Source: Chthoniobacteraceae bacterium
GTDB lineage: Bacteria > Verrucomicrobiota > Verrucomicrobiia > Chthoniobacterales > Chthoniobacteraceae
Assembly (NCBI GenBank): GCA_031409655.1
Contig: JANNXQ010000062.1
Coordinates: 1 to 34,624 of the forward strand
Reading direction: 5' to 3'
DNA: 34,624 nt
In this document: positions 6,254 to 31,150 of the stretch, one piece after another
Numbering within the stretch: the first letter of the stretch is position 1
Layout: each line of letters begins with the position of its first letter
Made by a program: the position numbers and the translations under genes
The notes under the pieces: generated by a model
Told to the model about the DNA's origin: nothing
The model's input: only the letters and a program-made list of their open reading frames with translations
Databases searched by the model: none

Positions 6254-7426
6254 TTACTTCCAGACTCGCGGGAGGACGTGGATGCCGTAGGCGATCAGCC
6301 CGATGATGAGGATCGCGAAGATCACGTAGAGCATGCGCGTCGCCAGTTCGGCCTTCTTCAGCCGGCGCAGTTCCGAGTAGCGCTCGTCGAGTTCGACTTT
6401 CTGGCGTTCGAGCACGCCGCGCAGGACTTCGTTCACCTGCTGCAAGCCGGTGGCGGAGCCCACCTCCAGCTGGCGCACGGCTTCGTCTCTGGTGGCGCGC
6501 ATCGCTTCGAATTGCGTCAGCCATTCCTTGCCGGCTTCCGTCTGCTTCGCGAGCTCGCTCTTGGCCTCCGCGAGTTCCGTCTCCAGGCGTTTGCGTTCCG
6601 CGTCGCGGCTTTCGACTCGCGCCCGGAGATCGAGCAGCACGCGTCCAGACTCCGTCTGCGAAAATTCCCGGCGCATCGTCTCGCTTTCCTTCGCCAGCGT
6701 GCTCGTCCGCTGTTCCGCGGCGGCGAGTTTTTCCCGGGTGTCGCTCAGTTCTTTGCCCCGCGCCTCCGCCCGAGCGACTGCCTGCTCATTGACCGCGAGC
6801 TTCGCGCGCGCGTCGTCGTAGTTGTGCCTGTGCAGATCGCTCTCGTCCTGCAGCCGGGAGATCTCGGCCTTGGCGTCACTCTGCTCCCGCTCGAGCACCG
6901 TCACCCGCACCCGCACGGCTGCCAATTCCTTCTCCCGCGCCGCGACATCCACGCCCAGCGCCTTGGCCTTTTCCCGGGAGAGTTCGAGATCCTCCTCCGT
7001 CTGCTTGCGCCTTGCCGAGTGCTCGGTCGCTTCGGCCTCGAGCATCGCGAGGCTCTGGGCGAGTTGGGCGATCTCCGTCTTCGCCTGTTTCAGCTCCATG
7101 CCGCTCGGCCCTGCTTCCGCCCGGAGTCGGTTGCGTTCCGCGGTGATTGCCCGCGTCGATTCCGGGGCGGGAGTCGGCATCTTCCCTTCCGGGATTCCCC
7201 CGTGGAGCCGTTCGCCGCTGCCCCGGCGCTCCGCGACCGGCCCCGCCGCCCGGGCCACATATTCGCGGTCCATCATCGAGCCGATCGCCGGGACGATGAG
7301 ACTCTGCTGACATCCGGCGCACTGCGTCTCCACCCCGGCGCCGGACGCATCTACCACGAAACGCTGCCCGCAATGCGGACAGGAAAAACGAATGTCTTGT
7401 CTCCCGGCGGTCTTTCCTTGGCTCAC
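6254..7426 (-). CDS. Zn-ribbon + long coiled-coil protein with C-terminal transmembrane anchor
   Basis: N-terminal CPHC...CAGC, about 270 aa E/K/R/A-rich heptad region, C-terminal hydrophobic MLYVIFAILIIGLIAYGIHVL. Confidence 0.75.
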   Translation of the reverse strand: MSQGKTAGRQDIRFSCPHCGQRFVVDASGAGVETQCAGCQQSLIVPAIGSMMDREYVARAAGPVAERRGSGERLHGGIPEGKMPTPAPESTRAITAERNRLRAEAGPSGMELKQAKTEIAQLAQSLAMLEAEATEHSARRKQTEEDLELSREKAKALGVDVAAREKELAAVRVRVTVLEREQSDAKAEISRLQDESDLHRHNYDDARAKLAVNEQAVARAEARGKELSDTREKLAAAEQRTSTLAKESETMRREFSQTESGRVLLDLRARVESRDAERKRLETELAEAKSELAKQTEAGKEWLTQFEAMRATRDEAVRQLEVGSATGLQQVNEVLRGVLERQKVELDERYSELRRLKKAELATRMLYVIFAILIIGLIAYGIHVLPRVWK

Positions 7427-9929: not shown

Positions 9930-11726
9930 ATGGGTTTATTTTCTCCCGAACTGATGCTCTTCGACTGTAGGTCGGGGGAACATACTGCGGTGGACAAGAC
10001 GCCCTTTACCATCGGAAGCGGGGCGGAGTGCGATTGGCGGATCGACGATCCGGCGGTGTCGGCGGAGCACTGCGTGATCCAGCGGAAGGGGCGCGCGTTT
10101 TTTCTCCTGCCGGCGAATGGCACGGGCGAGCTGCTGCTCGATGGTGTGGAGAGTCCGGGCGGGGAGCTGGCGCCGGATGAAGATCACACGCTGATCATCG
10201 GCGGACATCTCCTGGCGCTGCGCGGGCCGAGTCATTTGAAGAAGTGGGTGGAGGGGATCAATCACCAGGAGTGGTTCATCTACGACAAGACGGAGCAGAA
10301 GAAGTATGGGCCGCTCGACTTTGCGGATCTCGCGGGGGCGCTGGAGGCGCGGCCTTCGGGCGCGAGTGAAGCGGTGGTGCTCTGTCGCGGTCTGACGACG
10401 ATGGGATTTTTCGCCGAACATCTGCTGCCGTGGCTTCCGCGTCCGGTGGGGGCGGCGGAGCGCCCGGAGGCCGCGGAGTTGCCGCCCGTGCCCAATCATT
10501 CGCCGGTGCCGGAGATCGATACGGAATACGGGGAGTTCACGTGCCCGGTCTGCTGGCTGCGGTTTGATCGCGGAGATGCGATGAACATCGCGGTGCATGC
10601 TTCGCTGCGGGGCGATCCGCTGCTCGGGGAGCAGCACATGCAGCGTTTTCACGCGATCCGCTTCAATGACCGCGGTCAGGCCGTGGATGCCCTGAATGTG
10701 CCCGCGCCGGACCTCGCCTGTCCGCATTGCCGGCGCAAACTGCCGCAGGGTTTCCTGGATCTGCCGCATCACATTTTCTCGATCGTCGGTGCGCCGTCGT
10801 CGGGGAAATCCTACTTCCTGAGTGTGCTCGTGAAGATGCTCCAAGGGACGCTCTTTCAAAACTTCGGGATCACCTTCCGCGACGCGGACCCTTCGGCGAA
10901 TGTGATCCTGAATCAGATGAAGACGCAGCTCTTCTCGGCGGCAACGCCGGAGGAGGCTTTCCTGGCCAAGACGGAACTCGAAGGCGCGATGTATGAAACG
11001 CTACCGCGACTCGGGCGGAAGGTGCCGCTGCCGAAGCCGTTCATCTTCAATCTCTCGAACCCGCGCGACTCGGCGCAGGATTTCTCGGTGGTCTTTTACG
11101 ATAACGCGGGTGAGCACTTTGAGCCGACGCGAGACAGTGCGGACTCGCCCGGCGCGCAGCACATCGCGGCCGCGGCGGGGATTTTCTTTCTCTTCGATCC
11201 GCTGCACAGCGCGGAATTCCGGACGCTGCTCGCGGGGATCAAGGATCCCCAGATCGAAGCGCGGCGGATGGATCAGCAGGATGTGATTTTGGCGGAGACG
11301 GAAGTGCGGATCAAAAGTCTGCTGGGCCTCGATGCGCGGCAGAAGATCGCGACCCCGCTGGCGGTGATCGTGGGGAAGAGCGACACTTGGCTGGAGCGCA
11401 TCACGGATGAGGAAATCCTCGATCCGGTGCGCGCTGGCGTGCTGGACCTCTCGATCGTGCGGCGAAACTCGTCGCTGGTGCGGCAGGTGATGCTGGCGGT
11501 CTGCCCGGCGATCGTGGCGAATGCCGAGGCGATCTCCTCGGAGATCATGTACTTCGCGGCAAGCCCGCTGGGGTGTTCGCCGGTGGAATTTACCGATGCG
11601 CGCGGGGTGAAACTGATCGGCCCCGATCCGCAGAAACTCGCGCCGCGGCATGTGGAGGTGCCGACGCTCTGGGTGCTCTCAAAGGTCGCACCGGCAATGG
11701 TGCCATCCGTGGAGGGGACCACGTGA
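9930..11726 (+). CDS. FHA + GYF-like + Zn-finger + TRAFAC-class GTPase (double-GTPase 2-like)
   Basis: FHA-like TIGS..CD..IDD..VSAEH...NGT; GYF_2-like WFIY......YGP; CPVC and CPHC; G1 GAPSSGKS, G3 DNAGE, G4 GKSD, G5-like ASPLG. Confidence 0.85.
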   Translation: MGLFSPELMLFDCRSGEHTAVDKTPFTIGSGAECDWRIDDPAVSAEHCVIQRKGRAFFLLPANGTGELLLDGVESPGGELAPDEDHTLIIGGHLLALRGPSHLKKWVEGINHQEWFIYDKTEQKKYGPLDFADLAGALEARPSGASEAVVLCRGLTTMGFFAEHLLPWLPRPVGAAERPEAAELPPVPNHSPVPEIDTEYGEFTCPVCWLRFDRGDAMNIAVHASLRGDPLLGEQHMQRFHAIRFNDRGQAVDALNVPAPDLACPHCRRKLPQGFLDLPHHIFSIVGAPSSGKSYFLSVLVKMLQGTLFQNFGITFRDADPSANVILNQMKTQLFSAATPEEAFLAKTELEGAMYETLPRLGRKVPLPKPFIFNLSNPRDSAQDFSVVFYDNAGEHFEPTRDSADSPGAQHIAAAAGIFFLFDPLHSAEFRTLLAGIKDPQIEARRMDQQDVILAETEVRIKSLLGLDARQKIATPLAVIVGKSDTWLERITDEEILDPVRAGVLDLSIVRRNSSLVRQVMLAVCPAIVANAEAISSEIMYFAASPLGCSPVEFTDARGVKLIGPDPQKLAPRHVEVPTLWVLSKVAPAMVPSVEGTT

Positions 11727-11735
11727 TGAAGACCC

Positions 11736-11862
11736 CGGATGCCTCAGAAGGTGCGACCACAGATGACGCAGATAGCACAGATGGGGAGTGCGGACGGCGT
11801 GGCTTCCTCCCGCTTCATCTTTGTTATCTGTGTTATCTGTGGTCCACCCCTCTGCGGTATCC
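11736..11862. repeat. Long imperfect inverted repeat built on 9-mer units (CACAGATRR)
   Basis: GACCACAGATGACGCAGATAGCACAGATG (11755-11783) pairs with CATCTTTGTTATCTGTGTTATCTGTGGTC (11816-11844). Outer arms GGATGCCTCAGAAGGTG / CACCCCTCTGCGGTATCC extend the stem. Confidence 0.8.
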
Positions 11863-11887
11863 GAGAGGGCCTATCTAAGTAGGAGCG

Positions 11888-14782
11888 ATGGCTTGGCAAT
11901 TGATCTACACCAGCGCGCCGCGTGCGCTCGAAGCCGGGCGCTCGGGCTTCGGCACGGTGGCGCGGCATCGGGAGATCAGTCCGCTGCTCGTCACGGCGAT
12001 CGAACGGACGAGCCAGTTCTCGCGGTTGCCGGGGTTGGATAATGCGCGCGTCATTTTCAGTCACCGCATCGTGACGGTCGCCGGAGGGCGCTTTCATGTG
12101 CTCGGCGCGATCCGCGATGCCGGGGCGGACTATACGGGACGGACCAATCACCTCGCGCATCACCTCATCGTCGAGGCGCGGGAGATCGCGCGGCTCGGGC
12201 CGGATGGTCCCTCGCCCGCCGAGGTGCTGCTGGCGATGCCGTGGACGGAATCGTGGAGCGAGGCCCCGCGCTATCTGGACGCGGCGGAGGAGGTGGATCT
12301 CGCGGCGGTGCATCCGCCGCGCAGCAGTGCCTGGGCGGCGCTCACGGGAGACGCGGCGCACGCTTCGCTCCTGGCGAGTGGAGAGGCGAGCCGGGGCGCT
12401 TACGTCATCGCGCCAGCGGCCACGGATCTGCGCCAGATCTTCGCCGAGTCCCTGCGCCTCGCGCCGGACCGGCTCTGGCAGATCACTTTCACCACTTCAC
12501 TCCAGCCTAGCGATGAGCCCGCTGATTTCCGCTGGATCGGGATCGAGGCAAATTCGCCGATCGTCTCGCAGGCCGCGACCAGTGGCCGGCCAGTGCTCGA
12601 TTTCTCCACGCGGGCCAGCGTCCTCGCCGCCATCGCCGCACCCGCGGCCGAGCGGGCGACCGCGAGTGCGCCGACCCCTGCGCAGATCCCCGCCAGCCTT
12701 CCCACGGCCCCCGCTCCGGCCGCGCGCAGTGCGCCGGCGCCGGCCCCGCGCCGGGCAGAGGTCGCATCGGCACCCGATCCCTTTGCCGGGTTCACGCCGA
12801 CACGCGTTTTCCCGTGGAAGAGGGTCGCGATCGCGGTCTCGGTCGGAGTGCTGCTCCTGGTGGTCGCGGCGGTCACGGTCCCGCGGCAACTCGCCGGGCG
12901 AGATCGGGAGCGCGCCCGTGCGGCGCTGCTGGCGCCGGTGAAGAGTGCGTTTTTCGAAAGTGCGGAGATCCCGCGCGAACTTGAGGCCGCGATCAAGCAA
13001 CCCGGCGTGAACCTCGCCAAGGCGGGACCGCTGGCGCAGTTCGTCGCTTCGCTCGGGGGCGCGCTGCGGCGTCCGGATTTTCCCGCGCTGAGCCGGGAGC
13101 CGCAGCAGGCGAGACTGCACGATCTCGCCATCGCCGCCGGGATGAACAATCACCCGCCGGAGATGGGGCGGATGGCGGATGCGCTCGATCAAGCCGCTGC
13201 CCTCGCTGGCCAAATCACGACCGCAGCCAGCGCCAACAATTTTCCGGAACTCCACCAACTGCGGGCGAAGATTTCGGGAATCGGTGGAGCGGAGTTTAAG
13301 ACCGTGCGGCAGGCGCTCGAGCGGATTGCGAATACCGCCGGAGCGCAGGCCCTCGCATTGCAGCTCAAGGGCTCGGCGCATCCGGGGAATCGCGCGCTGC
13401 TTCAGGAAGCGGCGGCCGATCTACGACCGGAGGACTCCGATGCGGAGACGCAGAAGATCGTCGGCGAACTCCGGGCGTTGCTGGCGGACTGGGAGTTTGT
13501 GGAGGCGCAGAGCGGGCCCGCGGATATCGCCCCGAGGTTTGAAGTGCGCGGCGAAAAGTGGCCCGAGTGGCTGCGGGCCGTGGCGCAGCGGAAAATTTCG
13601 CCGGCGCGGGAAAAGACGGCGGATCGTCCCGCCGGTCCGGCCTCCGCCAGCACCGCGACGTTTTACTTTTTCGACAGCAAAGAGAAGTTGCCGACCGTCG
13701 AGATCGCCGAACTGATCCCGGAGCTGGATTTTGAAACGCGGACGCCGGCCGGCGAAGTCACGCGGCTCGGCTTCAAATACGAGCACACCGTGCGCAAGGA
13801 TCTGCGGTCCGGCAAAGACGGCTTCCAGGTGCAGAAGGGTCGGCTGACCGCGGAAGCGGGAGTGTCAGGCACGCCGTTCATTTTCGCCGGACGCGATCCG
13901 AAGGACGGCCCGCGCGAGGTGGTCGCGGTGCATGTCGGCCTTTTGCCGGGACGAGAAGCGTGGCTCGGAAATGCGGCACTCCAGCTCGAACGCCGCGGGC
14001 CGGTGCTGCGTGTCAAGGGATCGCTGCCGCGCATCGCGCCCGTGCTCGAGCCGAGCCTCACGTTGCTGGTGCCAGGTGACTTTGCGGGCAGCGGAATGCC
14101 CCGCCAACTGCCGATGAACACGGCCGGTGAGTGCGATCTGGAGGCGGCGATCGCGGACCTGACCAAGCGCATCCTGGACAAGCGGGGCGCGGCGAATCAG
14201 CTCGCTCAACAAGCGAGTGAAAAGCGCGGCGACGCCCGATCGTTTGATGCCTTGCGGCTGCGGACCTTGGAGTACGCAAAAATCCTGAAGGTCGATCGGC
14301 GAACGAAGAGCTTTGCGACGAAGGGGAAGTCGGGGCCGGAGTTGGTGGGTGAATTTACCCGCATCCTGGCGGAGCAGTGGGGCGCGGGACCGAACGGTGG
14401 TTTCGGCGCACTGGCGGAGACGGGGCGCCTGCTCGCGACCACGGGCGAGGATCTCCCGCAGGCGCGGATCGTGAATCGGCAGCTCCTCGAAGAAGTGCAG
14501 GGGCTCGAGCAGAAGTTCCGCGCGCCCGACAAGGCGGATGGACTGAGCAAGGTGCGGAGCTTGAGCAAGAGCCTCGACGCGTCCTTCGGCGACGCGACGA
14601 TGATGGACGCGGAAAGCGAACGGCTGAATACCGCGGCGGAGGCGGCGGAACGCGAAGCCATGGTGCTGGAGAAACTGCCGCTTTTCCGCGGGACGATTCC
14701 GCCCGGCGAATACGCGGTGCTCGTGAAAGTGAAAGGGACGGCGGCCCCGGTGCGGCTCTACAACATCCTCGTGAAAGAATGA
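11888..14782 (+). CDS. GAP1-N2-like (GTPase-associated protein 1) N-terminal domain, Pro/Ala linker, single TM and large C-terminal region
   Basis: N-terminus QLIYTSAPRALEAGRSGFGTVA...DYTGRTNHLAHH, W.ITFTT; TM at about 12824-12880; AGGAG RBS at 11881-11885. Confidence 0.8.
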   Translation: MAWQLIYTSAPRALEAGRSGFGTVARHREISPLLVTAIERTSQFSRLPGLDNARVIFSHRIVTVAGGRFHVLGAIRDAGADYTGRTNHLAHHLIVEAREIARLGPDGPSPAEVLLAMPWTESWSEAPRYLDAAEEVDLAAVHPPRSSAWAALTGDAAHASLLASGEASRGAYVIAPAATDLRQIFAESLRLAPDRLWQITFTTSLQPSDEPADFRWIGIEANSPIVSQAATSGRPVLDFSTRASVLAAIAAPAAERATASAPTPAQIPASLPTAPAPAARSAPAPAPRRAEVASAPDPFAGFTPTRVFPWKRVAIAVSVGVLLLVVAAVTVPRQLAGRDRERARAALLAPVKSAFFESAEIPRELEAAIKQPGVNLAKAGPLAQFVASLGGALRRPDFPALSREPQQARLHDLAIAAGMNNHPPEMGRMADALDQAAALAGQITTAASANNFPELHQLRAKISGIGGAEFKTVRQALERIANTAGAQALALQLKGSAHPGNRALLQEAAADLRPEDSDAETQKIVGELRALLADWEFVEAQSGPADIAPRFEVRGEKWPEWLRAVAQRKISPAREKTADRPAGPASASTATFYFFDSKEKLPTVEIAELIPELDFETRTPAGEVTRLGFKYEHTVRKDLRSGKDGFQVQKGRLTAEAGVSGTPFIFAGRDPKDGPREVVAVHVGLLPGREAWLGNAALQLERRGPVLRVKGSLPRIAPVLEPSLTLLVPGDFAGSGMPRQLPMNTAGECDLEAAIADLTKRILDKRGAANQLAQQASEKRGDARSFDALRLRTLEYAKILKVDRRTKSFATKGKSGPELVGEFTRILAEQWGAGPNGGFGALAETGRLLATTGEDLPQARIVNRQLLEEVQGLEQKFRAPDKADGLSKVRSLSKSLDASFGDATMMDAESERLNTAAEAAEREAMVLEKLPLFRGTIPPGEYAVLVKVKGTAAPVRLYNILVKE

Positions 14783-17700
14783 GCACGCCCGCCGCCAAAC
14801 TCGTCCTGCGCATCCGCGACGCCCTCGCCGTCGAGGGGCGGATGGCGCCGGTGGAAAGTCTCGCCGCGGACTACGCGAAGCTCTGTCACGAAGCTGGCCA
14901 GCGGTTGGATTCGTGCGCCGCGATGATCGAAAAGGGGAGCGACTACCAGGCGCTGCAACTCGCCGAGAACGAGCCCGCATTGCTCGATCTCCTGGCGACG
15001 CTCAGCTTCGCCGAGGCGCGGGAGTGGGCGGCCTTTTGTCTCCGGGACGGCCTCGCGACGGCGCTGCGTTTTGACCCGAAGGCAGTGCAACTGCTCGATG
15101 CTCTCTACGCGCAGGGGATCAGCCCGAATCATCCACTGTACAAGGATTGCCGGGCGGCGATCACGGCGCATGATGACGCGCGCGCCATCCAGGCGATCCG
15201 CTCCATCGCCCGGCTGAATCCGCATGACGAAAACGCGCGCGCAGAACTCGCGCGCTTCGAAAACAAACTCTACCAGGCCGGCGTAAAGGAACTGCGCGCG
15301 GCGCTGCACGGGTCCGACGAAGCGAAGGTGCGCTCGGTGCTGACGGAACTCGAACGACTCGCGACCCCGGCCAGGCTGCGCGAGTCGCCCGACTACGCCG
15401 CGGCCCTGCCGATTCGCCGCGAAGCGGAAAAGCGCGAGGCCCTGGAGCTCGCGGCGCGGCTCGTGGATTCACTCGGCGAAGAACGCGAGGCCGGCGCCTG
15501 GCGGATGATCGGCGACCTGCTCGCGCGCATCGCCTCCCTCCAGGCGGAGCACGGATTTGATCTTTCTCCGGACCACGCGGCGGTGGTGGCGGAGACGCAG
15601 GCCGCGTTTGCCGCCGAGCGGCGGGCCGTGGATGAAGCGACGCGATTCTCCGCCGGCCTCGCCGCCATCGGCACGGCCTGCGAGCGCGTCGAGACCCGGC
15701 TGCTCACGCCCAGCACGCTCACTCTCGCCGAGACGCGGAATCTTTACGCGGACTTGAATGGGCGCTGGAAAGAGCTGGAGTATTTTCAAAAGCCAGTACC
15801 GGAGGAACTCGGACTACGCGTGGAGGCAAAGATCGCGGACTTGCGGGCGGAGGTGGATCGCTTGCAGCGCCAGCAGCGGGTGAAAGTGATCGCGTCATGT
15901 TTGGCCGTGCTCGCGGCGTCGGCTAGCGCGGCATGGTTTGCCATCGGCGCGGTGCGGATGCAGGAAAATGCGAGTCGGCTCGCGGAGATGCGCAATGGCG
16001 GGCAGGTCGAAGCGGCGGAGAAATTGATCGCGCAACTGCGCGCGGACGGCAGCGGGCTCACTGGCCAGAGCCGTCTTGCGGCGCGCGTGGCAGAGGTGGA
16101 CCGGTGGACCCGTGATGAACGGGTGATGCTCGGACGGGCGGAAGCGAAAATGACGGAACTCGAAGCTGCCGCCGCCACGGGTTTCACCGGCACTGATCCC
16201 ATGAGCCTGCACAACTCCGCCGAGGAAGCTGGCGAACTCGTGCAATCGCTCGCCCAAGGCCTGCGCACGACGCCTGCCGCGCGCCTGACCGCGGTGCGCA
16301 ACCGCGTGGACGAGCGCTTTGCCGTCTTGCAGGAAAACCTCGTCGCGGACGCCGAGCGGAGCTTGACGGCGATCGAGACGCTGTCCGCGGCGAAGCTCGG
16401 CTACGACCAGCCGCGGGAGACGATTGCCGAAGCGCTCACGGAGATCGATCCGCCGATGCACATTCTCGAAACGCGCGTCCAGACCTCGGTCCCCGCGCTC
16501 GCGCTTCCGGCGGCGCAGGTCGCGCGACTCGAGGTGGTGCGGAAGCGCTGCCAGCTTTTCCGGGAGGAGCTCGAAGGTCTGCAAAAGGTCAGCGAAGGGC
16601 TGGTGCTGGCGACTTCGCTGGACGCATACCGCCAGGCGCTCAATGGCTACAAGACTTCGCGCTTGAGCCAGGTGCGGGAGGTCAATGAAGCACGCAAATT
16701 GCTCGCCGGTTTTCCGACGGTCGATGCCCTGCTCGCAAGTCTGCTCGTGGCCGGCGACGCTGTCGCGTGGCCCGCGCTGCGGGATGATGCGGCGGGGGGG
16801 CGCTTCGTTCCGGAGAATGTTCAGCCAGCAGAGATGGCGAAACTTTTCGCCCTGCGCGACGACCCAAATCTCAATGACGTCCTGGAGGCAACCGTGATCG
16901 ATTACCGGCGCGGAAAGGAAAAGCGCGACGTCTATGTGCGCGGCGAAGTGCAGAAATCCGGACCCAGTGAATCGAGCGCCGGACTGACCACGCAGTGGAC
17001 CGCGGCCATCTATGAGCCGACGAGCAAATCCGAAGTGGTGTCCTTTGTGCCGATGACCTTCGTTTCCACGTGCTCAAGCTTCGGCACGGGAGGCTCCGGG
17101 GAAATCACGGAGACGCGGCGGAGTGCGGTCTCGGAACTCCTCAGCCGACTCGAACTGCCGCGCGTGACCGACGCCACGGGCGAAAAGTATGAGCGTTCCG
17201 TGCTCCGGCTCTTCGACGAAGTGGTGCGGGAGAAATCCGCGAACGTCGTGGCGAAGGCGTTCGTGCTCCAGCAACTCGCGGGCTTGCTGAATCTGCGGCC
17301 AGAGCACTGGGGCCTCGCCCACTGCGCCAGCCTCGGCAAGGATCTCGCAGAACTCCAGCGACTCTGCGGCGGCGCGACGCTGCGCGGTGATGATTGGCTG
17401 TCCGAACGGCGCCGCGCGCAACTCGCGCCGAAGCTCGCGCCTTTCTTCACCAGCCTGCAAAACCGCTCGTACCTCGCGGAAGCGCGCTTGCATCGGGAGA
17501 TCGTGCGCGCCGTGCTCCAGGCTGGCCTGCAATACGGCGGATACATCGATGGCAACAGCCAGATGCATCTGCTCGGTGAAGCGCGCCGCGCCAAATCGCT
17601 GTGGACCTTTCCCGCGGAAGGCGCCGGTCTGATTCGCCTGGTCCTCGCTCCCGATGGCGGGGCGATGACCCCCGCAGCGTCCGCGCCGCTTTCCCCGATC

Positions 17701-17814
17701 CTCTTTGTACCGCTCGATCCAGAGGCCCTCATCGCCGATGCGACCCGTCGCATCGCGGACGATCTCGCGGCGAAACCGAAACGCCCGGCGATTCCATGGT
17801 TGGAGGCCCAGTGA
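14779..17814 (+). CDS. 1011-aa helical/coiled-coil bitopic membrane protein of the GTPase operon
   Basis: ATGA overlap with the upstream gene; N-terminal Y...C.EA..RL..C......G...AL.LA..EP.LLD block; TM at about 15880-15954. Confidence 0.75.
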   Translation: MSTPAAKLVLRIRDALAVEGRMAPVESLAADYAKLCHEAGQRLDSCAAMIEKGSDYQALQLAENEPALLDLLATLSFAEAREWAAFCLRDGLATALRFDPKAVQLLDALYAQGISPNHPLYKDCRAAITAHDDARAIQAIRSIARLNPHDENARAELARFENKLYQAGVKELRAALHGSDEAKVRSVLTELERLATPARLRESPDYAAALPIRREAEKREALELAARLVDSLGEEREAGAWRMIGDLLARIASLQAEHGFDLSPDHAAVVAETQAAFAAERRAVDEATRFSAGLAAIGTACERVETRLLTPSTLTLAETRNLYADLNGRWKELEYFQKPVPEELGLRVEAKIADLRAEVDRLQRQQRVKVIASCLAVLAASASAAWFAIGAVRMQENASRLAEMRNGGQVEAAEKLIAQLRADGSGLTGQSRLAARVAEVDRWTRDERVMLGRAEAKMTELEAAAATGFTGTDPMSLHNSAEEAGELVQSLAQGLRTTPAARLTAVRNRVDERFAVLQENLVADAERSLTAIETLSAAKLGYDQPRETIAEALTEIDPPMHILETRVQTSVPALALPAAQVARLEVVRKRCQLFREELEGLQKVSEGLVLATSLDAYRQALNGYKTSRLSQVREVNEARKLLAGFPTVDALLASLLVAGDAVAWPALRDDAAGGRFVPENVQPAEMAKLFALRDDPNLNDVLEATVIDYRRGKEKRDVYVRGEVQKSGPSESSAGLTTQWTAAIYEPTSKSEVVSFVPMTFVSTCSSFGTGGSGEITETRRSAVSELLSRLELPRVTDATGEKYERSVLRLFDEVVREKSANVVAKAFVLQQLAGLLNLRPEHWGLAHCASLGKDLAELQRLCGGATLRGDDWLSERRRAQLAPKLAPFFTSLQNRSYLAEARLHREIVRAVLQAGLQYGGYIDGNSQMHLLGEARRAKSLWTFPAEGAGLIRLVLAPDGGAMTPAASAPLSPILFVPLDPEALIADATRRIADDLAAKPKRPAIPWLEAQ

Positions 17815-18422
17815 CGACTCCGGACTCCGAAAAATATCTGCTCCGCTGGAAAGGCCGCGCGCTCGGTCCGTTCACGTTTGTGGAGATCACGGACCAGCTC
17901 CAGGCCGGTGAGATCAGCCGGCTGCATCAGGTGCAGCAGCGCGGTGGGTGGATGCTCCTGGATGACTTTCTCGAGAAACGCGAAGTGCGGTCCAGCGCGG
18001 CTTCGCGCGGTGCTCCGACGCCAGCAATCGCCGAATCCGAACGCGGGTCCGGCGCAGAGCCTTCACCACTCGCTCATTTGCTCCCGAAGGAGCATCGGCG
18101 GGAAGTCGCGCCCCTCACCCACCCAGCGGCGCCCCGTGCTCCCCAGCCACCGCTGCCTCCTCTCGCTCCCGGCGCGCTGCCTCGCACCAGTCGTCTGGCG
18201 ATGGCCGCGCTGATCCTGAGCTTTTGCAATGTCATCCCCTACGTGCTCTTCGTCGCGTGGCTGCCGTCGCTCATCTGCGGGCACCTTGCGCTGGCGCGGA
18301 TGAAGCGCGACCCGGCGCTCGGTGGTTACGGGATCGCGATCACCGCGCTCACGATCACGTACTTCCTCCTCGTCGTCGGCGCGACTTTCGGCGTCCTCTG
18401 GCTCCTGCACGAGAAGCCGTGA
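17811..18422 (+). CDS. GYF_2-like + Pro-rich linker + DUF4190-like membrane protein
   Basis: GTGA overlap with GGAGG upstream; YLLRWKGRALGPF...L.AGEI; TSRLAMAALILS...ICGHLAL......GYGIAITAL. Confidence 0.8.
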   Translation: MTTPDSEKYLLRWKGRALGPFTFVEITDQLQAGEISRLHQVQQRGGWMLLDDFLEKREVRSSAASRGAPTPAIAESERGSGAEPSPLAHLLPKEHRREVAPLTHPAAPRAPQPPLPPLAPGALPRTSRLAMAALILSFCNVIPYVLFVAWLPSLICGHLALARMKRDPALGGYGIAITALTITYFLLVVGATFGVLWLLHEKP

Positions 18423-18459: not shown

Positions 18460-19503
18460 TCAGGGATGCGCGCGGGATTCTTCGGCGATCCGGCGCGCGA
18501 TGAGGCGGCTGAAAATTTTCGAGCCCTCGGTATTCAGGTGATCGGTATCGAGGCGGTGCTCGAGGCGGTAGAGTTCGGGAAATTTCTCGATGTCGGAAAA
18601 GTCGAGGATGAGCGAGCGACTCACCGTGGCAGGGAGCGGAACGAAGTTTCGTTTGGAGGTCGTCGGCGGCACGACGAGGACCGCGCGCGCCCCGAGACTC
18701 TCGATCTTGCCAATCATCCGGGTGAGCGCCTCCTGACTGACGGCATCGCTGGGGTATTCCGCGGCGGGTTTCGCGCTGCGCTCAGCGAGTTCGCGTTCGT
18801 ATTCCTCGAGGTCGCTCCCGCCGATTTGCTCGGCGCGATCCGCGCGCTCCCAGCCGCCATCCTCGAAGGTGCTTTCCTGGACGGGTGCCGTGGGCTTGAG
18901 GAGACGATCCGTGAAGGGCGTGCCGCGACCGAGATGCGTCGCCCGCTCGCCCCACATCTTGAGGAAATCCAGGAGCCGTGGCCATTCCTCGACGAGGCGT
19001 TGTCGCGTGAATTTCCAACCCGTCTTTTTGGCGTCGAATCGGGGCGCGAGGAGGCGGCGGAAAACCAGCGCCGTGCGCTCCCAGTCGCGCCAATACACGG
19101 AGCGAATCGTGCCGCGAGTGCGATCCACACCGGTGCCGAGGCTGGCCAGTTCGAGCACCACCCAGCGCAGAGATTTGGGCGGGTGCCGGAGGATCGTGTC
19201 GAGGAAGTAGGCGTCCTCGGGCGGGTTCATGCCGGCGACCGCGGCATTGAAGGTCCGCGTGGGGAGCGCTCGCGCGGTCGTCTCGGCATCGAAGATGGAC
19301 GGGATGATCTGGTAGGCGATGCGACTCGAGCCGATGAGCAGCGTGTCGTATGCGTCGTGATGAAGTGCGAGGTGCTCGATCTTGGGCCGCGCGATGGGCA
19401 CATCGGGAAAGGGGAGCCAGCGGCCGATGATCTGGCAGACCCCGACGAAGGCCACCCCGAAAGCCAGCGCGCTGAGCCAGGAGTGGAGGTGGGGGAACTT
19501 CAT
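18460..19503 (-). CDS. SGNH-like hydrolase/acyltransferase (DUF1574/DltD-like), N-terminal anchor
   Basis: DTLLIGSSR, TFNAAVAG, DTDHLN (DxxH). Confidence 0.65.
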   Translation of the reverse strand: MKFPHLHSWLSALAFGVAFVGVCQIIGRWLPFPDVPIARPKIEHLALHHDAYDTLLIGSSRIAYQIIPSIFDAETTARALPTRTFNAAVAGMNPPEDAYFLDTILRHPPKSLRWVVLELASLGTGVDRTRGTIRSVYWRDWERTALVFRRLLAPRFDAKKTGWKFTRQRLVEEWPRLLDFLKMWGERATHLGRGTPFTDRLLKPTAPVQESTFEDGGWERADRAEQIGGSDLEEYERELAERSAKPAAEYPSDAVSQEALTRMIGKIESLGARAVLVVPPTTSKRNFVPLPATVSRSLILDFSDIEKFPELYRLEHRLDTDHLNTEGSKIFSRLIARRIAEESRAHP

Positions 19504-20531
19504 GGCGCGGCCTGCAAGATCAGACCGAAGCGCTCGGCGAGAAGGTCGGTAAAAAGCGCGGCACCGCGCGGGTTGAAATGCCAGGTGTCATACCGGAGCT
19601 CCGGATCATAGAGCTGCGGATATTTCTGCGGATCATTGAAGGCGATGAAATGCGCACCCGAAGGTGGCGGGGCGAAGAACTCGCGGGCAAGCACGGTCGG
19701 AGAGAGGACGAAGATCGGCTGCGCGCCCGCGGCGCGAACTTCCGCGATGAGGTCACTCATCGCGGTGCGGAGGACTGGACTGAGTTGCGCGAGTGGTGGG
19801 TCCGTCTGCAAGCTGCTGACCCTTTGAGCGTAGTCTCCGCGAGCCTCGGCGGGCAGTACATCGGCGGGCCCGGCCTTGTAGCCAGCGGTCTCGCGCCAGT
19901 CCTTCGGGGGTGCCCAGTCTTTCTTTTTCCAGGCGAGCCTTTCCTCGAACCACACTGCGCCGCGGCCGAAGTTCAGGAGCTGTTTCGCGAAGAGCGCGGC
20001 GTGATCGGCGAGCAACCGGAAGCGGACGCGCGTCGGTTCGGTGGAGCGCAGGATTTCCTCCACGGCCATGCGGGTGTGGCGCCAGTCGTGCCAGTAGGCC
20101 ATGCGCATGGTGCCGGTGTATTGCTCGTTCAGTTGCGGGTCGATATCCATCATGTCGATGAAGACCCAGCGGAGCCGCGTGGGGCGCAGGGCAAGGATCT
20201 GGCGCAGCATGAAGTAGCTCTCCGGCGGCCACATCGCGTCGTAGCCGAAATTAAAGGAGCGCAAGGGCTGTCCGGTGCTGGCGGTGACCGCGGCGTCAAA
20301 CTGCCGTGGAATGATGTGGTGATAGAACCGGCTCGAGCCGAGGAAGAGCGTGTCGTAGGCGTCGCGCTGCTCGGCGAAGTGGAGGTACTTCTCGGCGATG
20401 CCCGGCGGACGCGGAAAAGGGAGCGCGTGATAAATCGCCGCGCAGACGAGCACGCAGGTGCCGCAGAAAAGCGCGGCGTCGCGAGCGGCGCGGAGGGCGC
20501 TCGGGAGCGGTCGGAGCGGCGAGGCGACCAC
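19500..20531 (-). CDS. SGNH-like hydrolase/acyltransferase, paralogue of the downstream gene
   Basis: DTLFLGSSR, SFNFG, DTWHFN; ATGA overlap. Confidence 0.65.
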   Translation of the reverse strand: MVASPLRPLPSALRAARDAALFCGTCVLVCAAIYHALPFPRPPGIAEKYLHFAEQRDAYDTLFLGSSRFYHHIIPRQFDAAVTASTGQPLRSFNFGYDAMWPPESYFMLRQILALRPTRLRWVFIDMMDIDPQLNEQYTGTMRMAYWHDWRHTRMAVEEILRSTEPTRVRFRLLADHAALFAKQLLNFGRGAVWFEERLAWKKKDWAPPKDWRETAGYKAGPADVLPAEARGDYAQRVSSLQTDPPLAQLSPVLRTAMSDLIAEVRAAGAQPIFVLSPTVLAREFFAPPPSGAHFIAFNDPQKYPQLYDPELRYDTWHFNPRGAALFTDLLAERFGLILQAAP

Positions 20532-25616: not shown

Positions 25617-26174
25617 CTACGGTGCCGCGACTTCAGTCGCCGAGCCGCTGGTCCACTCGCGGGTGGAGGCGTCAAATTTCAGCACCGCCTGCCAGGCCGC
25701 GGGGCGGGGGACGCCCTGCGAGTCGATGATCTCGCCGCGGAGGAGGACCTTGGCGCGGTCGGGTGGCTGCATCTCCACGGCCGCTTTCTTGAGTTCCGCA
25801 AATTCCACCAGCGAGCCTGGCGGCAAGGCCCCGGTGCGCACGGCATCGCGGGCGCGCCAGTAGGCCGCGCGGGGCGTGAAATCGTGCTGATTCGTCTCGC
25901 GCCAGCCAGTGATCGTGATCGGGCCGAAGAATTGCGCGAGCACCAGCAGGACAAGACCCACGGCGAGGGCGATCACCGGCTTGCGCCAGCGATTCGGCAC
26001 TTCGCGCCGGACGACCAGCGTCGTCACGGGCTGCCATTGTTCGAGCCCTTCGCGCCAGTAGAGCGTTTCCTCCGCGATCAAGCCGGAGTTCAGCAAATGA
26101 TCCACTTGCGGCGCGGTGTAGGGCCCGCGCTGTTCGCCGTGGATGTGGAGATAGAAGATCTCGGGGGAACTCAT
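25617..26174 (-). CDS. GYF_2 (DUF4339-like) domain membrane protein
   Basis: FYLHIHGEQRGPY...GLIAEETLYWREGLEQW, followed by a TM segment. Confidence 0.85.
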   Translation of the reverse strand: MSSPEIFYLHIHGEQRGPYTAPQVDHLLNSGLIAEETLYWREGLEQWQPVTTLVVRREVPNRWRKPVIALAVGLVLLVLAQFFGPITITGWRETNQHDFTPRAAYWRARDAVRTGALPPGSLVEFAELKKAAVEMQPPDRAKVLLRGEIIDSQGVPRPAAWQAVLKFDASTREWTSGSATEVAAP

Positions 26175-26292: not shown

Positions 26293-27699
26293 TCATTTCG
26301 TGCGCTCCTTCAGATAGCGTTCCGCCAGCGCCCTCCGGCTGATCTTGCCCCGTTCATTGACGGGAATCTCCGGGACGATCCAGACATCGCGCGGCACCTG
26401 CCAGGCGCTGAGCCTCTCGCGACACATCCGCAGCACCGCCTCTCTGGTGAGTCTGGCGCTGGCGACGCAAGCGATCGCCTCCTCCCCACGCGCTGCCGAC
26501 CGCACCCCGAAGACCACCGCCTCCAACTCCCCGGGGAACTCCGCGAACCGCGCCTCGATCTCGAGCGGATTGAGTTTGCGGCCCGCGATATTGATCACCT
26601 CCGAGACGCGGCCCGCGAGGTGCATGCCACCGTCCGTCTGCCGGATGAGATCGGCGGGGATAAAGCGCCCGCCGCCGAGCACGGCTCCGTCTTCCTCGGG
26701 AAAATAGCCATCGCCCACGGCGGCACTCTGGACCTCGATCGCCGCCCCATCCTCGCTCCCCCCGGTGATCGTGACGCCGCACATCGGCGTCCCGACAAAG
26801 CCCTCGAAGTAGTCGCCCTCGTCGGCTTCGTCGTAGGCGATGCCGCCACATTCGGAGGCACCGTAGAAAGTGTGGATACGGCGGGCAAATTTCGCGGTGA
26901 ACTTCTCGCCGACCGCTCGGGGCAATGGTGCGCCAGCCGAAATACAGAGCCGGAGCGCGGGCAGGGCGGGCACATTCTCCAGATCGGCCAGCTTGGCGAA
27001 AAACACCGGCATACCGGGAAAGACCGTGGCTCCGGAGCGCGCGAGACCAGCGAGAATCGCGCGCGGCATGCAGTCTCCACTCGCGACGAGCGCCACGCCG
27101 CGGCAGAGCAGGGGAGTGAGCAGATTGCTGAAGCCGTAGCTGTGCGAAAAGGGGATCACGCCGTAGTTCCGATCGCGCTCCGTGATCCCCATGGTCGCGC
27201 AGATGGCTTCGCAGTCGGCCACGAGTTGTGCGGCGCGAAAGCGGACGGCCCGTGGTGCGTTCGTCGTGCCCGAGGTCAGCTTGAGGAAATGCGGCGCGGG
27301 ATTTGGCCAGCCTGGCTCGGCGTCAGCGCCCGGGAGTCCTTGCAACGCGAGACCATGGCGGTCGGTCGTCACGAGCGCCGTCGCGCGGCACGTCTTCACG
27401 GCCAGATCCAATTCCACCTCCTGCATGTGTCCGCCGAGGGGGAGCGGGATCAGGGCGCGGCGAAACAGCGCGAGCAGCAGCGCCGGCCAGCGTTCGCTAT
27501 TTCCGATTTGCACCGCCACCACCTGGCCTGGCGCCAGACCGGTCAGGGATTCCTCCGTCTGGCGCGCCTCGGCTTCGATGTCGTTGAAAGTACGCAGCAC
27601 GGACCCATCCGGTCCGAAGATCGCCGCGCGGGCCGCATTGCGCGCCAGCGTTTCCGACCACGCGACGAGGATGCCATTTGCCAACGCCGGCTCCGTCAC
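26293..27699 (-). CDS. Class I adenylate-forming enzyme (acyl-CoA ligase-like)
   Basis: TSGTTNAPR, PFSHSYG, FYGASE, GRVSEVINIAG, P.NERGKISR. Confidence 0.85.
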   Translation of the reverse strand: MTEPALANGILVAWSETLARNAARAAIFGPDGSVLRTFNDIEAEARQTEESLTGLAPGQVVAVQIGNSERWPALLLALFRRALIPLPLGGHMQEVELDLAVKTCRATALVTTDRHGLALQGLPGADAEPGWPNPAPHFLKLTSGTTNAPRAVRFRAAQLVADCEAICATMGITERDRNYGVIPFSHSYGFSNLLTPLLCRGVALVASGDCMPRAILAGLARSGATVFPGMPVFFAKLADLENVPALPALRLCISAGAPLPRAVGEKFTAKFARRIHTFYGASECGGIAYDEADEGDYFEGFVGTPMCGVTITGGSEDGAAIEVQSAAVGDGYFPEEDGAVLGGGRFIPADLIRQTDGGMHLAGRVSEVINIAGRKLNPLEIEARFAEFPGELEAVVFGVRSAARGEEAIACVASARLTREAVLRMCRERLSAWQVPRDVWIVPEIPVNERGKISRRALAERYLKERTK

Positions 27700-27769
27700 G
27701 GAAGAAACTGGGAGTTTTTGATTGCGGGGCGAAACACGGTGGCTAGTCTCCTACCTCCTTTTCCCAGCC

Positions 27770-27991
27770 ATGAAAGCCGATATTCATCCCAACTATAAAG
27801 AGTCCGCCATCCACTGCGCGTGTGGTGCCGTTTATCACACCCGCTCGACGAAGCAGGACCTCCGCATCGGCATCTGCGCCGCCTGCCATCCCTTCTTCAC
27901 TGGTGAGCATAAGTTCGTCGATACTGCCGGACGGATCGAGAAATTCTCCCGCCGTTACGCAAACGCGCCGACCCGCAAAAAGTCCGCCTAG
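27770..27991 (+). CDS. rpmE: 50S ribosomal protein L31 (Zn-binding type)
   Basis: [32 protein letters not shown]. Confidence 0.97.
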
Positions 27992-28011
27992 CTCCCAGAA
28001 ACGAATTCCCG

Positions 28012-28054
28012 AAACGGTGAAGGTGCCTCGCGCATCTTCACCGTTTTGTTTTTT
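28012..28054 (+). terminator. Intrinsic terminator after rpmE
   Basis: AAACGGTGAAGGTGC / GCATCTTCACCGTTT stem (one G-U pair), then TGTTTTTT. Confidence 0.8.
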
Positions 28055-28080
28055 CCCCGCCCTTCCACCGCTCCGCTCTC

Positions 28081-29160
28081 ATGGACTTTTCCCAACTTAT
28101 CGCCCGTAAAACCGATCGCTTCCGCGAACTGGACGCCATCGTCTCGTCGGCCGGCCTTTACGATGACCCGAAGAAAGCGCGGGAGACGCTGCGGGAACAT
28201 ACCCGGCTGAAAGAGCTGCTCGCCCAGTGGGACGCGCTGCACAAAGCCGAGCGCGATCTCGCAGAAAATCGCGATCTCGCGAAGGGCGACGACGCCGAGT
28301 TCGCCGAGATGGCCCAGGCGGAAATCCCTGCGCTCGAAAAGCGCATCGCCGAAACGCAGCAAGCCGTGCAATACGCCCTGCTCCCGCCGGACCCGAACGA
28401 AGATCGCGACGCCATCGTCGAGCTTCGCGCTGGCACCGGGGGCGACGAAGCCGGGCTTTTCGCCGCCGATCTCTACCGGATGTACCTGCGTTTCGCGGAA
28501 GCGAACGGCTTCAAAGTCGAGACCCTGGAATCCAGCCCCTCCGGTCTCGGTGGCCTGAAGGAAATGATCTTCAAGGTCACGGGCGACCAGGTCTTCCGCA
28601 CCCTGCGTTACGAGAGTGGCGTGCATCGCGTCCAGCGCGTCCCGGCTACGGAAGCGCAAGGCCGCATTCACACCAGCGCCGCGACCGTCGCCGTGTTGCC
28701 TGAAGCCGAGGAAGTGGATCTGGTGCTGAATCCCGACGAGATCCGCATCGAAGTCTGCCGCGCGGGCGGCCCCGGCGGCCAAGGCGTGAATACCACCGAC
28801 TCCGCCGTGCAGGTCATGCATATCCCAACGGGCATGATCGTCCGCTGCCAGGACGGCCGCAGCCAGCAGAAGAACAAAGAGAAGGCCTTGAAAATCCTGC
28901 GCTCCCGTCTGCTGGAAAAAAAGCAGCGCGAGGAAGCCGAGAAATATGCCGCGCATCGCAAGAGCCAGATCGGTTCCGGTGATCGCAGCGAAAAGATCCG
29001 CACTTATAACTTCCCGCAAAACCGCGTCACCGATCACCGCATCAATCTGACCCTCTACAACCTCGACACCTTCATCGGTGGTAACATCGGCGAAATGATC
29101 CAGGCCCTACAGGCCGCCGACATGGCCGAACGCCTCGCCGAAGCGAGCCAGGAGGCGTGA
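28081..29160 (+). CDS. prfA: Peptide chain release factor 1
   Basis: GTGGDEA, ESGVHRVQRVPATE (PxT motif), GGQ, RSEKIRTYNFPQ. Confidence 0.97.
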   Translation: MDFSQLIARKTDRFRELDAIVSSAGLYDDPKKARETLREHTRLKELLAQWDALHKAERDLAENRDLAKGDDAEFAEMAQAEIPALEKRIAETQQAVQYALLPPDPNEDRDAIVELRAGTGGDEAGLFAADLYRMYLRFAEANGFKVETLESSPSGLGGLKEMIFKVTGDQVFRTLRYESGVHRVQRVPATEAQGRIHTSAATVAVLPEAEEVDLVLNPDEIRIEVCRAGGPGGQGVNTTDSAVQVMHIPTGMIVRCQDGRSQQKNKEKALKILRSRLLEKKQREEAEKYAAHRKSQIGSGDRSEKIRTYNFPQNRVTDHRINLTLYNLDTFIGGNIGEMIQALQAADMAERLAEASQEA

Positions 29161-29166
29161 TTTGAT

Positions 29167-29228
29167 CAAGGAGCAGGGGCGCCCTCGCTCCCAGTAGCAA
29201 CTCGGGGCGAGGGCGCCCCTACTCCTTG
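29167..29228. repeat. REP-like palindrome between convergent prfA and mqnA (probable bidirectional terminator)
   Basis: 25-bp arms, 23/25 complementary; second copy at 34539-34591. Confidence 0.85.
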
Positions 29229-30011
29229 CTAGACAAATTCCGGCAGTGATCGTCCGAGTGGCGCGAAGTTATGCTTCGCGAGGAGTTCGGCGAACCTTGA
29301 GAGCCCTGCCTTTTCCCGCTCGCCGAGATCGTAGCGGATATGCTCGCGGAGGTAGCGTTCGCAGAGCTTGGTCGGGAGCGCCTTTTCTTCTGTGACGATC
29401 TCGGGGATTGCGGACACGCCTGCGGTCTTGAGGTGGCGGAAGGCTTCGGCCACGGCGGGAGCGTTGGGGAGGTCCGGACGCAGCGCCCAGACGGCAAAGA
29501 CGAAAGGGAGACCGGTGCAGCGTTGCCATTCTGCGCCGAGATCCAGCAATTGATGGCTCTCGGTGTCCGCGAGGCGGAAGTCGATGGCTTGGTTGCCGAT
29601 CAGGAGTTGCGCATCCGCTCCGGCGGAACACTTGCGCGCGTCGATGCACTCGGGGTGGAGGTGGTGGAACTCTGCGAGCAGCACTTGCAAGAGGTGCGCA
29701 GAGGTCAGCGAGGCGGGATCGAGCGCGATGGTGCGCACTTCCGCGAGCGGCCCACGGTGGGCGAGGAAGACGCTGAAGACCGGCCCATCGCTGGCGATCG
29801 CCACGCCGTCGGCAACGAGGTAGCGCGGGCCGCGCAGCACTTCAAAAACTGGCACGAGCGCGGCGTCGAGTGCGCCCGTAGCGAGACCGCGCGCGAGGCC
29901 CGAGGGATGATCGAACTGCACCGGCCCTGCGTAGTCGTGGATGAGCGGCTTTGAGTTCAGGTACTGCACACAGCCGATGCGCAGTCCGGCCAGCGCCGGG
30001 TAGCGCGTCAC
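29229..30011 (-). CDS. mqnA: Chorismate dehydratase (futalosine pathway)
   Basis: RIGCVQYLNSKPL, IASDGPVFSV, SLTS, DLGAEW...TGLPFVFAVW; GTG start overlapping the mqnE stop. Confidence 0.9.
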   Translation of the reverse strand: MTRYPALAGLRIGCVQYLNSKPLIHDYAGPVQFDHPSGLARGLATGALDAALVPVFEVLRGPRYLVADGVAIASDGPVFSVFLAHRGPLAEVRTIALDPASLTSAHLLQVLLAEFHHLHPECIDARKCSAGADAQLLIGNQAIDFRLADTESHQLLDLGAEWQRCTGLPFVFAVWALRPDLPNAPAVAEAFRHLKTAGVSAIPEIVTEEKALPTKLCERYLREHIRYDLGEREKAGLSRFAELLAKHNFAPLGRSLPEFV

Positions 30012-31150
30012 GCCGTGGCCAGCGCCACTGGCTGGCTCGGTGGTGCGGGCTGGCGCCAGGTGGGCGGCATGCGCCGATACCAGGTGTCCCGCTGCATCGG
30101 TTCGCGCCCCGCTTCGCGGATCGCTTTTTCCAAGGTCGCGCAGCTCTGATGTTGCGGGGTGGTGGCGCCCGCCATGTGAAAAATTTTCTCCTCCATGATC
30201 GTCCCATGCAGATCGTCCACGCCGTAGTTCAGCGCCTGCTGCGCGAGCGGCAGGCCGAGACTCACCCAATAGGCGGTGATGTGGTCAAAGTTATCGAGAT
30301 AGATGCGCGACACCGCGAGGTTCCGGAGTTCCTCAAAAGCGGTGGCCTTGCGGATCCCTTGGAGCACGGGCCGCGCGCCGTCGGGCTCGAAGGCGAACGG
30401 AATAAACGCGGTGAAACCGTGCGTCTGATCCTGCAACTCGCGAAGCCGCCGCAGGTGATCCACCCGATGCGCGTGGGTCTCGATATGGCCAAAGAGCATC
30501 GTCGCCGTGCTCCGCATTCCCAACTCGTGCCAGATGCGATGGACCTCGGCCCATTCCTCCGTACTCTCTTTTCCGCGACAAATTTTCTCCCGGATTTCCG
30601 CGTCGAAGATCTCCGCGCCGCCCCCCGTGATGGCGCCCAGCCCGGCCTCCCGCAGTGCTTCCAGCGTTGCGCGCAGCGGGCGCTTGAAGACCCGCTCCGC
30701 GAGGTGCCGGATCTCCACGGCGGTGAAGGCCTTCACGAAATAGTCCGGGTCGAGCGCCCGGAGGTGGCGGATGAGTTCGAGATACCACTCGGCTGGCAAG
30801 GTCGGATGCAGACCGCCGACCATGTGGATCTCGGTGACCCCGAGCGCCAGCCCAGCGCGCGCCTTTTCCACGATCTCGTCGATGGTCAGCTCAAAGGCGT
30901 GCGCTTCGTGCTTCCGTGCCCCGAAGGCGCAGAACTGGCACTGGAGGATGCAGATGTTCGAATGGTTGATGTACTGATTGTGGATGTAGGTCGCGACGTT
31001 CCCGTTCTTCCGCTCGCGCACCACATTCGCAATGGCTCCGAGCGCGTTCAGATCCTTCGTCGCGTAGAGTGCGAGGGCATCAGCATCCGTGATCCGCTCG
31101 CCAGCCGTTACCTTTTCCAAAATGGAACGCAGGGGCGGTGGGACGAGCAT
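30008..31150 (-). CDS. mqnE: Aminofutalosine synthase (radical SAM)
   Basis: CILQCQFC, EIHMVGGLHP, KAFTAVEI, GGGAEIF, TATMLFGHIE, EEKIFHMAGA. Start could be 31162. Confidence 0.85.
   Translation of the reverse strand: MLVPPPLRSILEKVTAGERITDADALALYATKDLNALGAIANVVRERKNGNVATYIHNQYINHSNICILQCQFCAFGARKHEAHAFELTIDEIVEKARAGLALGVTEIHMVGGLHPTLPAEWYLELIRHLRALDPDYFVKAFTAVEIRHLAERVFKRPLRATLEALREAGLGAITGGGAEIFDAEIREKICRGKESTEEWAEVHRIWHELGMRSTATMLFGHIETHAHRVDHLRRLRELQDQTHGFTAFIPFAFEPDGARPVLQGIRKATAFEELRNLAVSRIYLDNFDHITAYWVSLGLPLAQQALNYGVDDLHGTIMEEKIFHMAGATTPQHQSCATLEKAIREAGREPMQRDTWYRRMPPTWRQPAPPSQPVALATA

Follow-up and report, generated by a model that had tools for sequence, protein, structure and literature searches.

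A four-gene DO-GTPase/GAP1-N2 operon of a Chthoniobacteraceae genome as a possible control core of a cell-envelope machine

A four-gene block was found in the window, that is, the whole stretch of 34,624 nucleotides that was analysed (contig C62, JANNXQ010000062.1, of a Chthoniobacteraceae genome of 6.85 Mb that is 94.9% complete, assembly GCA_031409655.1). It encodes a DO-GTPase, the single GAP1-N2 protein of this genome, an unnamed helical membrane protein and a small GYF-like membrane protein. With slightly less than even confidence, the four genes are read here as an envelope scaffold that a GTPase gates and whose outputs are exchangeable; it would form the control core of a machine in the cell envelope. 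They are the front part of a seven-gene operon, and the motor-like trio that completes this operon in many relatives is missing in the window. The four genes, each a stop-free open reading frame, are as follows.

9930-11726, + strand: gene 1, 598 aa, DO-GTPase
11888-14782, + strand: gene 2, 964 aa, GAP1-N2 protein
14779-17814, + strand: gene 3, 1011 aa, unnamed family
17811-18422, + strand: gene 4, 203 aa, GYF-like membrane protein

As originally predicted, the four genes are co-oriented and intact, with genes 2 and 3 overlapping in an ATGA at 14779 and genes 3 and 4 in a GTGA at 17811, both read from the sequence. Longer starts for gene 3 (14377) and gene 4 (17601) were discarded, homologues aligning from 14779 and 17811. 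On one side the block is flanked by a divergent gene, which we take to be hisA-like, and on the other by a convergent gene at 18460, and its GC content is the usual one of the window. The gene order is repeated in relatives, so it is not a matter of chance.

To describe the neighbourhoods, 65 GTPase loci were compared (the window, genome G013, 13 named records and 50 of the 62 further places from the phylum survey described below). GAP1 followed the GTPase directly in 61 of them. Among the 46 long loci, which have at least 10.5 kb of downstream sequence, GAP1 was present in 46, a gene-3-like gene in 42 (4 of them called with a profile not established as kin to gene 3), a trio of a MotA gene and two partners in 21, and PilM in 5, and the conserved linkage that had been expected was thus borne out. 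The nearest named relatives of gene 1 (13 loci) are from Chthoniobacteraceae and other Verrucomicrobiota metagenome-assembled genomes (MAGs), with 56-74% identity.

In the seven-gene operons, the gaps between neighbouring genes were mostly -22 to +38 bp. The MotA-like gene scored above the Pfam MotA_ExbB cut-off with T225 and T267 invariant, and its alignment matched no PDB sequence at E 0.01. The two partners each have one transmembrane (TM) helix with an Asp (19/19 in one and 18/21 in the other, by pattern), a coiled coil and a small C-terminal domain, and an ExbD identity and role are inferred for them from position and TM Asp. The PilM-like gene matched PilM of PDB 3jc8 at E 1e-12, and no PilO identity was detected for the gene after it. 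In five loci (L028, L029, L030, L032 and L034) the operon is extended by a PilM-fusion gene and by a TM gene of PilO size, the GAP1 is short and without TM, and the FHA domain is canonical-looking; in two PilM-linked loci that were aligned, GAP1 lacks both the TM and the outer part. Genome G191 holds two copies, one PilM-linked and one motor-linked. A TM gene matching a local vWA profile was observed after the motor trio in nine loci (L033, L035, L037, L038, L040, L044, L046, L047 and L063), and one member of these genes has a Pfam vWA domain. In family f20, with small genomes (L018-L027, L069-L071), the operon is reduced to GTPase and GAP1 with gene 3 shortened or missing, and there is no motor.

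The motor genes of the clade are almost never found without the core, while the core is often found without motor genes, and this one-way dependence was observed in two surveys, one of 401 genomes of the phylum and one of 151 genomes of the window's family, many of which are incomplete. In the phylum survey, a cognate MotA (at least 324 bits) was present in 29 genomes, 27 of them with the GTPase; the remaining two are G087, with gene 3 at a contig start, and G400, with the trio and no core within 20 kb. The profile contains rows from seventeen of the 29, and among the other 12 the GTPase was present in 10. In the family survey, gene 3 was found in 16 genomes, and all nine full-length cognate MotA genes (at least 412 bits), some of which supplied profile rows, lie within 2 kb of gene 3. 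A partial MotA match (243 bits) was seen in G006, where a gene 3 match is absent. The cognate MotA is missing in 7 of the 16 gene-3 genomes, the window's included, and in G228, a genome that is 99% complete, the four genes are present and MotA was not matched. The operon may also be split, with parts retained elsewhere in the genome: three genomes with a lone GTPase keep GAP1 at another place, with gene 3 shown beside it in two.

No cognate motor was found in the window or its genome, which has a PilM-like gene on another contig (C274). In a quick tree of 62 GTPase rows (SH-aLRT, Shimodaira-Hasegawa approximate likelihood ratio test, as the only support; rooted at the midpoint; built without L013 and two cut loci), the window falls in a 16-row branch (support 95) with 7 motor-bearing rows, the label for no motor including loci with incomplete sequence. 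Since early-branching rows of this branch bear the motor, motor loss in the window's genome would be the simplest reading of the sequences. In the same tree, 30 rows of the window's class and named records are on one branch (100), 12 rows of one family on another (96) and the 5 PilM rows on a third (99), so that the tree broadly follows taxonomy, indicating largely vertical descent. L011 and L012 are from MAGs labelled Akkermansia muciniphila, and their GTPases group with Chthoniobacteraceae; labels or bins may be wrong. One GTPase homologue (P0131) carries the NCBI name Prosthecobacter fusiformis, with a cultured host on record.

Gene 1 is composed of an N-terminal FHA domain, a GYF-like domain, a Pro-rich linker, a split zinc ribbon and the G domain. 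Pfam gave FHA at 32.2 bits (cut-off 20.7) and DO-GTPase2 (PF19993) at 28.7 bits (cut-off 27), and together with the GAP1-N2 match of gene 2 both families of the original call are above cut-off. The protein is a TRAFAC GTPase with a Walker-B Glu, as is characteristic of the DO-GTPase family. Its motifs are G1 at 287-294, G2 at T348, G3 as DNAGE at 391-395 and G4 as GKSD at 482-485; G1 and G3 are complete as had been claimed, whereas G4 is a variant and not [NT]KxD. Over 49 homologues C205, C208, C264, C267, G287, G292, K293, T348, D391, G394, E395, K483 and D485 are invariant, and by pattern G1 and DxxGE were found in 49/49 GTPases and KxD in 48/49. The earlier zinc-finger claim had to be mended to a single four-cysteine ribbon split by an insert (C205/C208 and C264/C267), where GAP1-N2-type systems usually have two. 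From the intact motifs gene 1 is predicted to be a GTP switch, for which GTP turnover may be expected. Its structural model has a mean pLDDT (predicted local distance difference test) of 64, with FHA domains as the best structural matches and weak GTPase matches.

Phospho-binding FHA domains carry an Arg in their motif. In gene 1 this position is a Ser and the site drifts among close relatives, so the domain is likely a non-phospho-binding, plain adaptor, as judged from sequence. A local GYF profile matched 16 of the 49 gene 1 homologues and gave no match to gene 1 of the window itself, in which residues 110-168 hold the same place and appear GYF-like by position and model topology. The linker of the GTPase is richer in Pro than its own G domain in 39 of 47.

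For gene 2, Pfam gave GAP1-N2 (PF20013) at 70.8 bits (cut-off 24, E 1.6e-19). The protein consists of the GAP1-N2 domain (1-131), a conserved middle to about 248 at the GAP1-M position, a Pro/Ala linker, a TM at 313-331 (hydropathy 2.88) and an outer region (335-964), which is predicted to be periplasmic and fast-diverging. Among 40 GAP1 homologues, GAP1-N2 was matched in 39, GAP1-M in 20, GAP1-C in none, and no other family was found; gene 2 of the window had no GAP1-M match at E 0.001. The pre-TM linker contains 14.7% Pro versus 6.6%, and the linker is richer in Pro than the head in 31 of 38.

Gene 3 matched no family in Pfam (best E 0.06), NCBIfam or PADLOC, and GASH, which was considered for it, was discarded, there being no Pfam match. 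It consists of a helical cytoplasmic half (1-365) with a TPR-like segment, a TM (374-392), a three-helix-bundle rod (about 395-690) and a beta and alpha/beta C-terminal part. The TM is weak (hydropathy 1.96; mean 2.32 over 85 homologues), and the charge bias places the N-terminus inside in 81 of 85. With one TM each in genes 2 and 3 and two in gene 4, hydropathy agrees with the envelope-spanning layout that had been proposed. The model built from 85 rows is locally confident and mostly helical (pLDDT 89.5; pTM, predicted template modelling score, 0.55). Fold searches, which barely covered the C-terminal domain, returned Foldseek TM-scores of at most 0.16 and, by VIA, a best Z of 10.1 over 80 residues, with generic three-helix bundles and spectrin-like and TPR-like pieces. 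The family comprises 67 close clusters, and 1772 clusters at 50% identity with E up to 1e-30; in the ESM Atlas only unnamed clusters were seen, and a contig scan found no relatives in metagenome contigs. Gene 3 thus represents a large unnamed family with a confident model, without a specific solved relative.

Gene 4 has a GYF-like N-terminal domain, a Pro-rich linker and two TM helices (DUF4190-like). Both Pfam matches are below cut-off in the window (DUF4190 at 32.3 bits, cut-off 35; GYF_2 at 16.1, cut-off 25.8) and above it in relatives, and the local GYF profile matches gene 4 at E 5e-16. The domains named in the original prediction were thus recovered in part, FHA, DO-GTPase2 and GAP1-N2 being matched, GYF_2 and DUF4190 staying below cut-off and GAP1-M and GASH being unmatched in the window. 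The gene 4 slot is variable in relatives, with CD225, PrsW or trypsin domains. At locus L008 (1525-8014, - strand), a membrane-linked ubiquitin-like cluster lies divergent from the GTPase gene and encodes trypsin-TM, a YukD-like ubiquitin-like protein (Ubl), a ThiF E1, JAB-TM, TM-FHA, RING-GYF-CD225 and E2-FHA.

As a GTPase-gated scaffold, the four genes may work as follows. Gene 1, with its intact motifs, would bind and hydrolyse GTP and would dock on the cytoplasmic GAP1-N2/M head of gene 2, the product of the adjacent gene. By analogy with GltJ-AglZ of Myxococcus, the GYF-like domains of genes 1 and 4 may hold the components together through binding to the Pro-rich linkers. Gene 3, to judge from its model, would span the membrane and extend as a helical rod through the periplasm, next to the outer part of gene 2, which is lineage-specific. 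The nucleotide state would toggle an output at an envelope site, a coupling suggested by gene linkage. In the ancestral form this output would be a MotA/ExbB pentamer with a two-subunit TM-Asp plug, and in one lineage a PilM/N alignment complex. The window's genome has likely lost the cognate motor; its core may work on a partner whose gene lies elsewhere, or serve only as a scaffold for signalling. The scaffold would set where and when the envelope force generator works.

The Agl-Glt system of Myxococcus has a MotA/TolQ-type pentamer with two different B subunits and a small GTPase (MglA/MglB) (PMC11761067, PMC11135422), and GYF binding to Pro-rich linkers was shown for GltJ and AglZ (PMC11135422). 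Its parts list is similar to that observed here and includes FHA, zinc ribbon, GYF, a small GTPase switch, Pro-rich ligands, a TPR scaffold and single-TM periplasmic arms (PMC11761067, PMC11135422), and the motor trio of a MotA and a heterodimer in the relatives is of similar layout, although the window has no motor and the likeness is an analogy only. Unlike in Agl-Glt, no Glt, MglA/B or TonB-C family was matched in the four genes (Pfam, NCBIfam) or in GAP1 homologues, the operon has no conserved outer-membrane partner gene, and no AglRQS-type motor was found in the window or its genome.

GAP1-N2-type DO-GTPase systems are a computational prediction (Kaur, Burroughs, Iyer, Aravind 2020, PMC7159879), whose named range includes Verrucomicrobia. 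As in that prediction, a DO-GTPase with Walker-B Glu and zinc ribbon stands upstream of GAP1-N2, with a TM-fused GAP1 and a GYF-TM partner. A single GTPase with membrane partners had been taken as a special feature of this locus, which does not hold, since according to the main text of PMC7159879 single-GTPase forms are the majority (two GTPases in only 38%) and TM-fused GAP1 and GYF-TM or GYF-trypsin partner genes are already described. That text requires an FNIII (fibronectin type III) component; no FNIII/fn3 family was found in the four window genes (Pfam) or the 40 GAP1 homologues, of which the GAP1 outer part was not folded. The four genes therefore share the DO-GTPase/GAP1-N2 core and lack the FNIII component of the predicted kind, the window operon having the 1000-aa helical TM protein in its place. 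They also differ in having one split zinc ribbon with an FHA and GYF-like head and no detected GAP1-C, and in that the relatives' operons continue into the MotA/ExbB trio or PilM/N. The main text of PMC7159879 contains no MotA, ExbB, TolQ, ExbD or PilM (its Figure 6 and source data, outside the search, may show a link), and the literature search returned no paper linking a DO-GTPase to MotA/ExbB. Gene 3, the missing FNIII sensor and the continuation into a MotA/ExbB trio or PilM/N are thus beyond that main text.

Several observations weigh against the scaffold reading. Like the window, 25 of the 46 long loci have no motor, and because motor-free forms are common the motor cannot be the whole function. 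A paralogous trio in the window's genome (contig C139, about 26900-30491, L089), consisting of a zinc-ribbon MotA/ExbB gene and two TM-Asp coiled-coil genes, was discarded as a dedicated cognate motor in trans, with 191 bits versus at least 412 and no association with gene 3. Trios of this type occur in 49 of the 151 family genomes, 6/16 with gene 3 and 43/135 without (Fisher p 0.78, the kin not being independent), and with no enrichment in gene-3 genomes the trio is not a dedicated substitute. For the two partner genes of the relatives' trio, no ExbD, TolR or MotB model in Pfam or PDB was matched, and PilM linkage is confined to one clade of 5 loci. A conserved TM histidine of TonB/TolA type was not seen (His near the TM in 11/85 gene 3 and 2/38 GAP1 rows), and the literature searched held no experimental work on any family member. 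Defence, too, is in keeping with the patchiness (GTPase in 55 of the 401 phylum genomes, gene 3 in 16 of the 151 family genomes) and with the fast divergence of the outer part of GAP1.

Because of this patchy presence and variable outer domain, defence stays a serious rival. An anti-invader system after Kaur et al., in which the GAP1 outer part would sense phage or plasmid entry, the GTPase would switch and the membrane proteins, joined by a Zorya-like motor in genomes that have one, would block entry or depolarise the cell, is judged unlikely, though of real weight. It accords with the family membership and the published prediction (PMC7159879). The GTPase and gene 3 were not found in searches of three same-genus genomes, and in G001 the hisA neighbourhood is syntenic and the operon is missing. 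Over five close loci the GAP1 head is 73-82% identical and the G domain 74-82%, against 14-24% for the post-TM part, and a search with the outer part returned a single homologue among 8000 candidates scored. In that one near relative, however, the outer part (82-92% identical) has diverged little further than gene 3 (89-93%), on the assumption that the nearest proteins come from one organism, so that the outer part diverges between lineages with no marked excess at short range.

ZorAB of the Zorya defence system is a MotAB-like ion-driven unit, a likeness shared by the motor-like trio of the relatives, whose system is likewise proposed to work at the envelope. Unlike Zorya, the four genes match no PADLOC family at E 0.1 (the relatives' MotA genes were outside that scan), no nuclease or toxin gene travels with the operon, there is a GTPase core instead, and the two coiled-coil B subunits have no OmpA-like Pfam match. 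Among 119 flanking proteins, 9 had a PADLOC match, mostly to generic domains and with one convincing (PDC-S01, L042), a count made with no background control; the flanks are not defence islands. As to a mobile neighbourhood, presence is patchy and the gene 4 slot variable, yet the tree is near taxonomy and no match was found in 72,556 plasmids or in viral contigs. Phage sensing, the first option of the original prediction, is thus little supported, given no PADLOC match, FNIII, or plasmid or viral copy and largely vertical descent, and its second option, envelope work, fits better.

An envelope-stress or quality-control hub, in which the core would relay damage to intramembrane or periplasmic proteases and ubiquitin-like tagging and the motor would extract substrates, is improbable. 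The PrsW or trypsin domains in the gene 4 slot of several relatives, the Ubl/E1/E2-FHA/JAB-TM/RING-GYF-CD225 cluster of L008 and a reported link of DO-GTPase to PSP operons (10.1101/2020.09.24.301986) point this way, but the ubiquitin-like cluster was observed at 1 locus, close homologues of its Ubl, E2 and JAB genes are absent from the window's genome, and gene 4 of the window has no protease domain. Despite the absent motor, the repeat between genes 1 and 2 and the degenerate FHA phospho-site, it is very improbable that the four genes are a decaying remnant, non-functional after motor loss, as none of the four frames is interrupted over 8.5 kb, identity in the G domain is 97% to the nearest relative and about 80% to family members, and motor-free forms persist in whole clades and in G228.

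The repeat and other features observed in the window are given below.

11727-11887, no strand: intergenic copy of a palindromic repeat, a long hairpin (fold z -8.72)
6254-7426, - strand: protein with a zinc ribbon and a hydrophobic C-terminal segment, 2.5 kb upstream of the four genes
18460-20531, - strand: two tandem paralogous single-TM genes with no Pfam family, tandem too in G002 and G012
25617-26174, - strand: second GYF_2 gene with a single TM, 7 kb downstream of the four genes

The palindromic repeat separates genes 1 and 2 by 161 bp, compared with 1-20 bp in the eight relatives measured. It belongs to a dispersed family of this genome: at least 10 other contigs carry similar copies, and the motif was matched 20 times versus 0 in 3 shuffles. 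By our own reading it is REP/MITE-like, and it is likely a later insertion. The gene at 25617-26174 may belong to the same system as the four genes; a homologue with 49% identity sits two genes upstream of GAP1 in locus L081.

On a wider and rather doubtful view, the scaffold would be part of a phylum-wide PVC (Planctomycetes-Verrucomicrobia-Chlamydiae) envelope machine. In it, a single scaffold under GTPase control, made up of DO-GTPase, GAP1, the 1000-aa rod of the unnamed family and a GYF adaptor, would serve interchangeable force generators, as a second, independently built counterpart of the focal-adhesion system of Myxococcus. No less speculatively, most lineages would use a proton motor plugged by a coiled-coil heterodimer, one lineage the alignment complex of the type IV pilus, and the window's genome a partner that is not linked to the operon. 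An immune function is ascribed to DO-GTPase/GAP1 systems (bioRxiv 10.64898/2026.10.19.760177), a label that is purely a prediction. The window's branch is without the proposed sensor or any toxin, largely vertical in descent and tied to envelope force generators, and if this wider view is true, part of the 'DO-GTPase conflict systems' would shift from immunity to cell biology.

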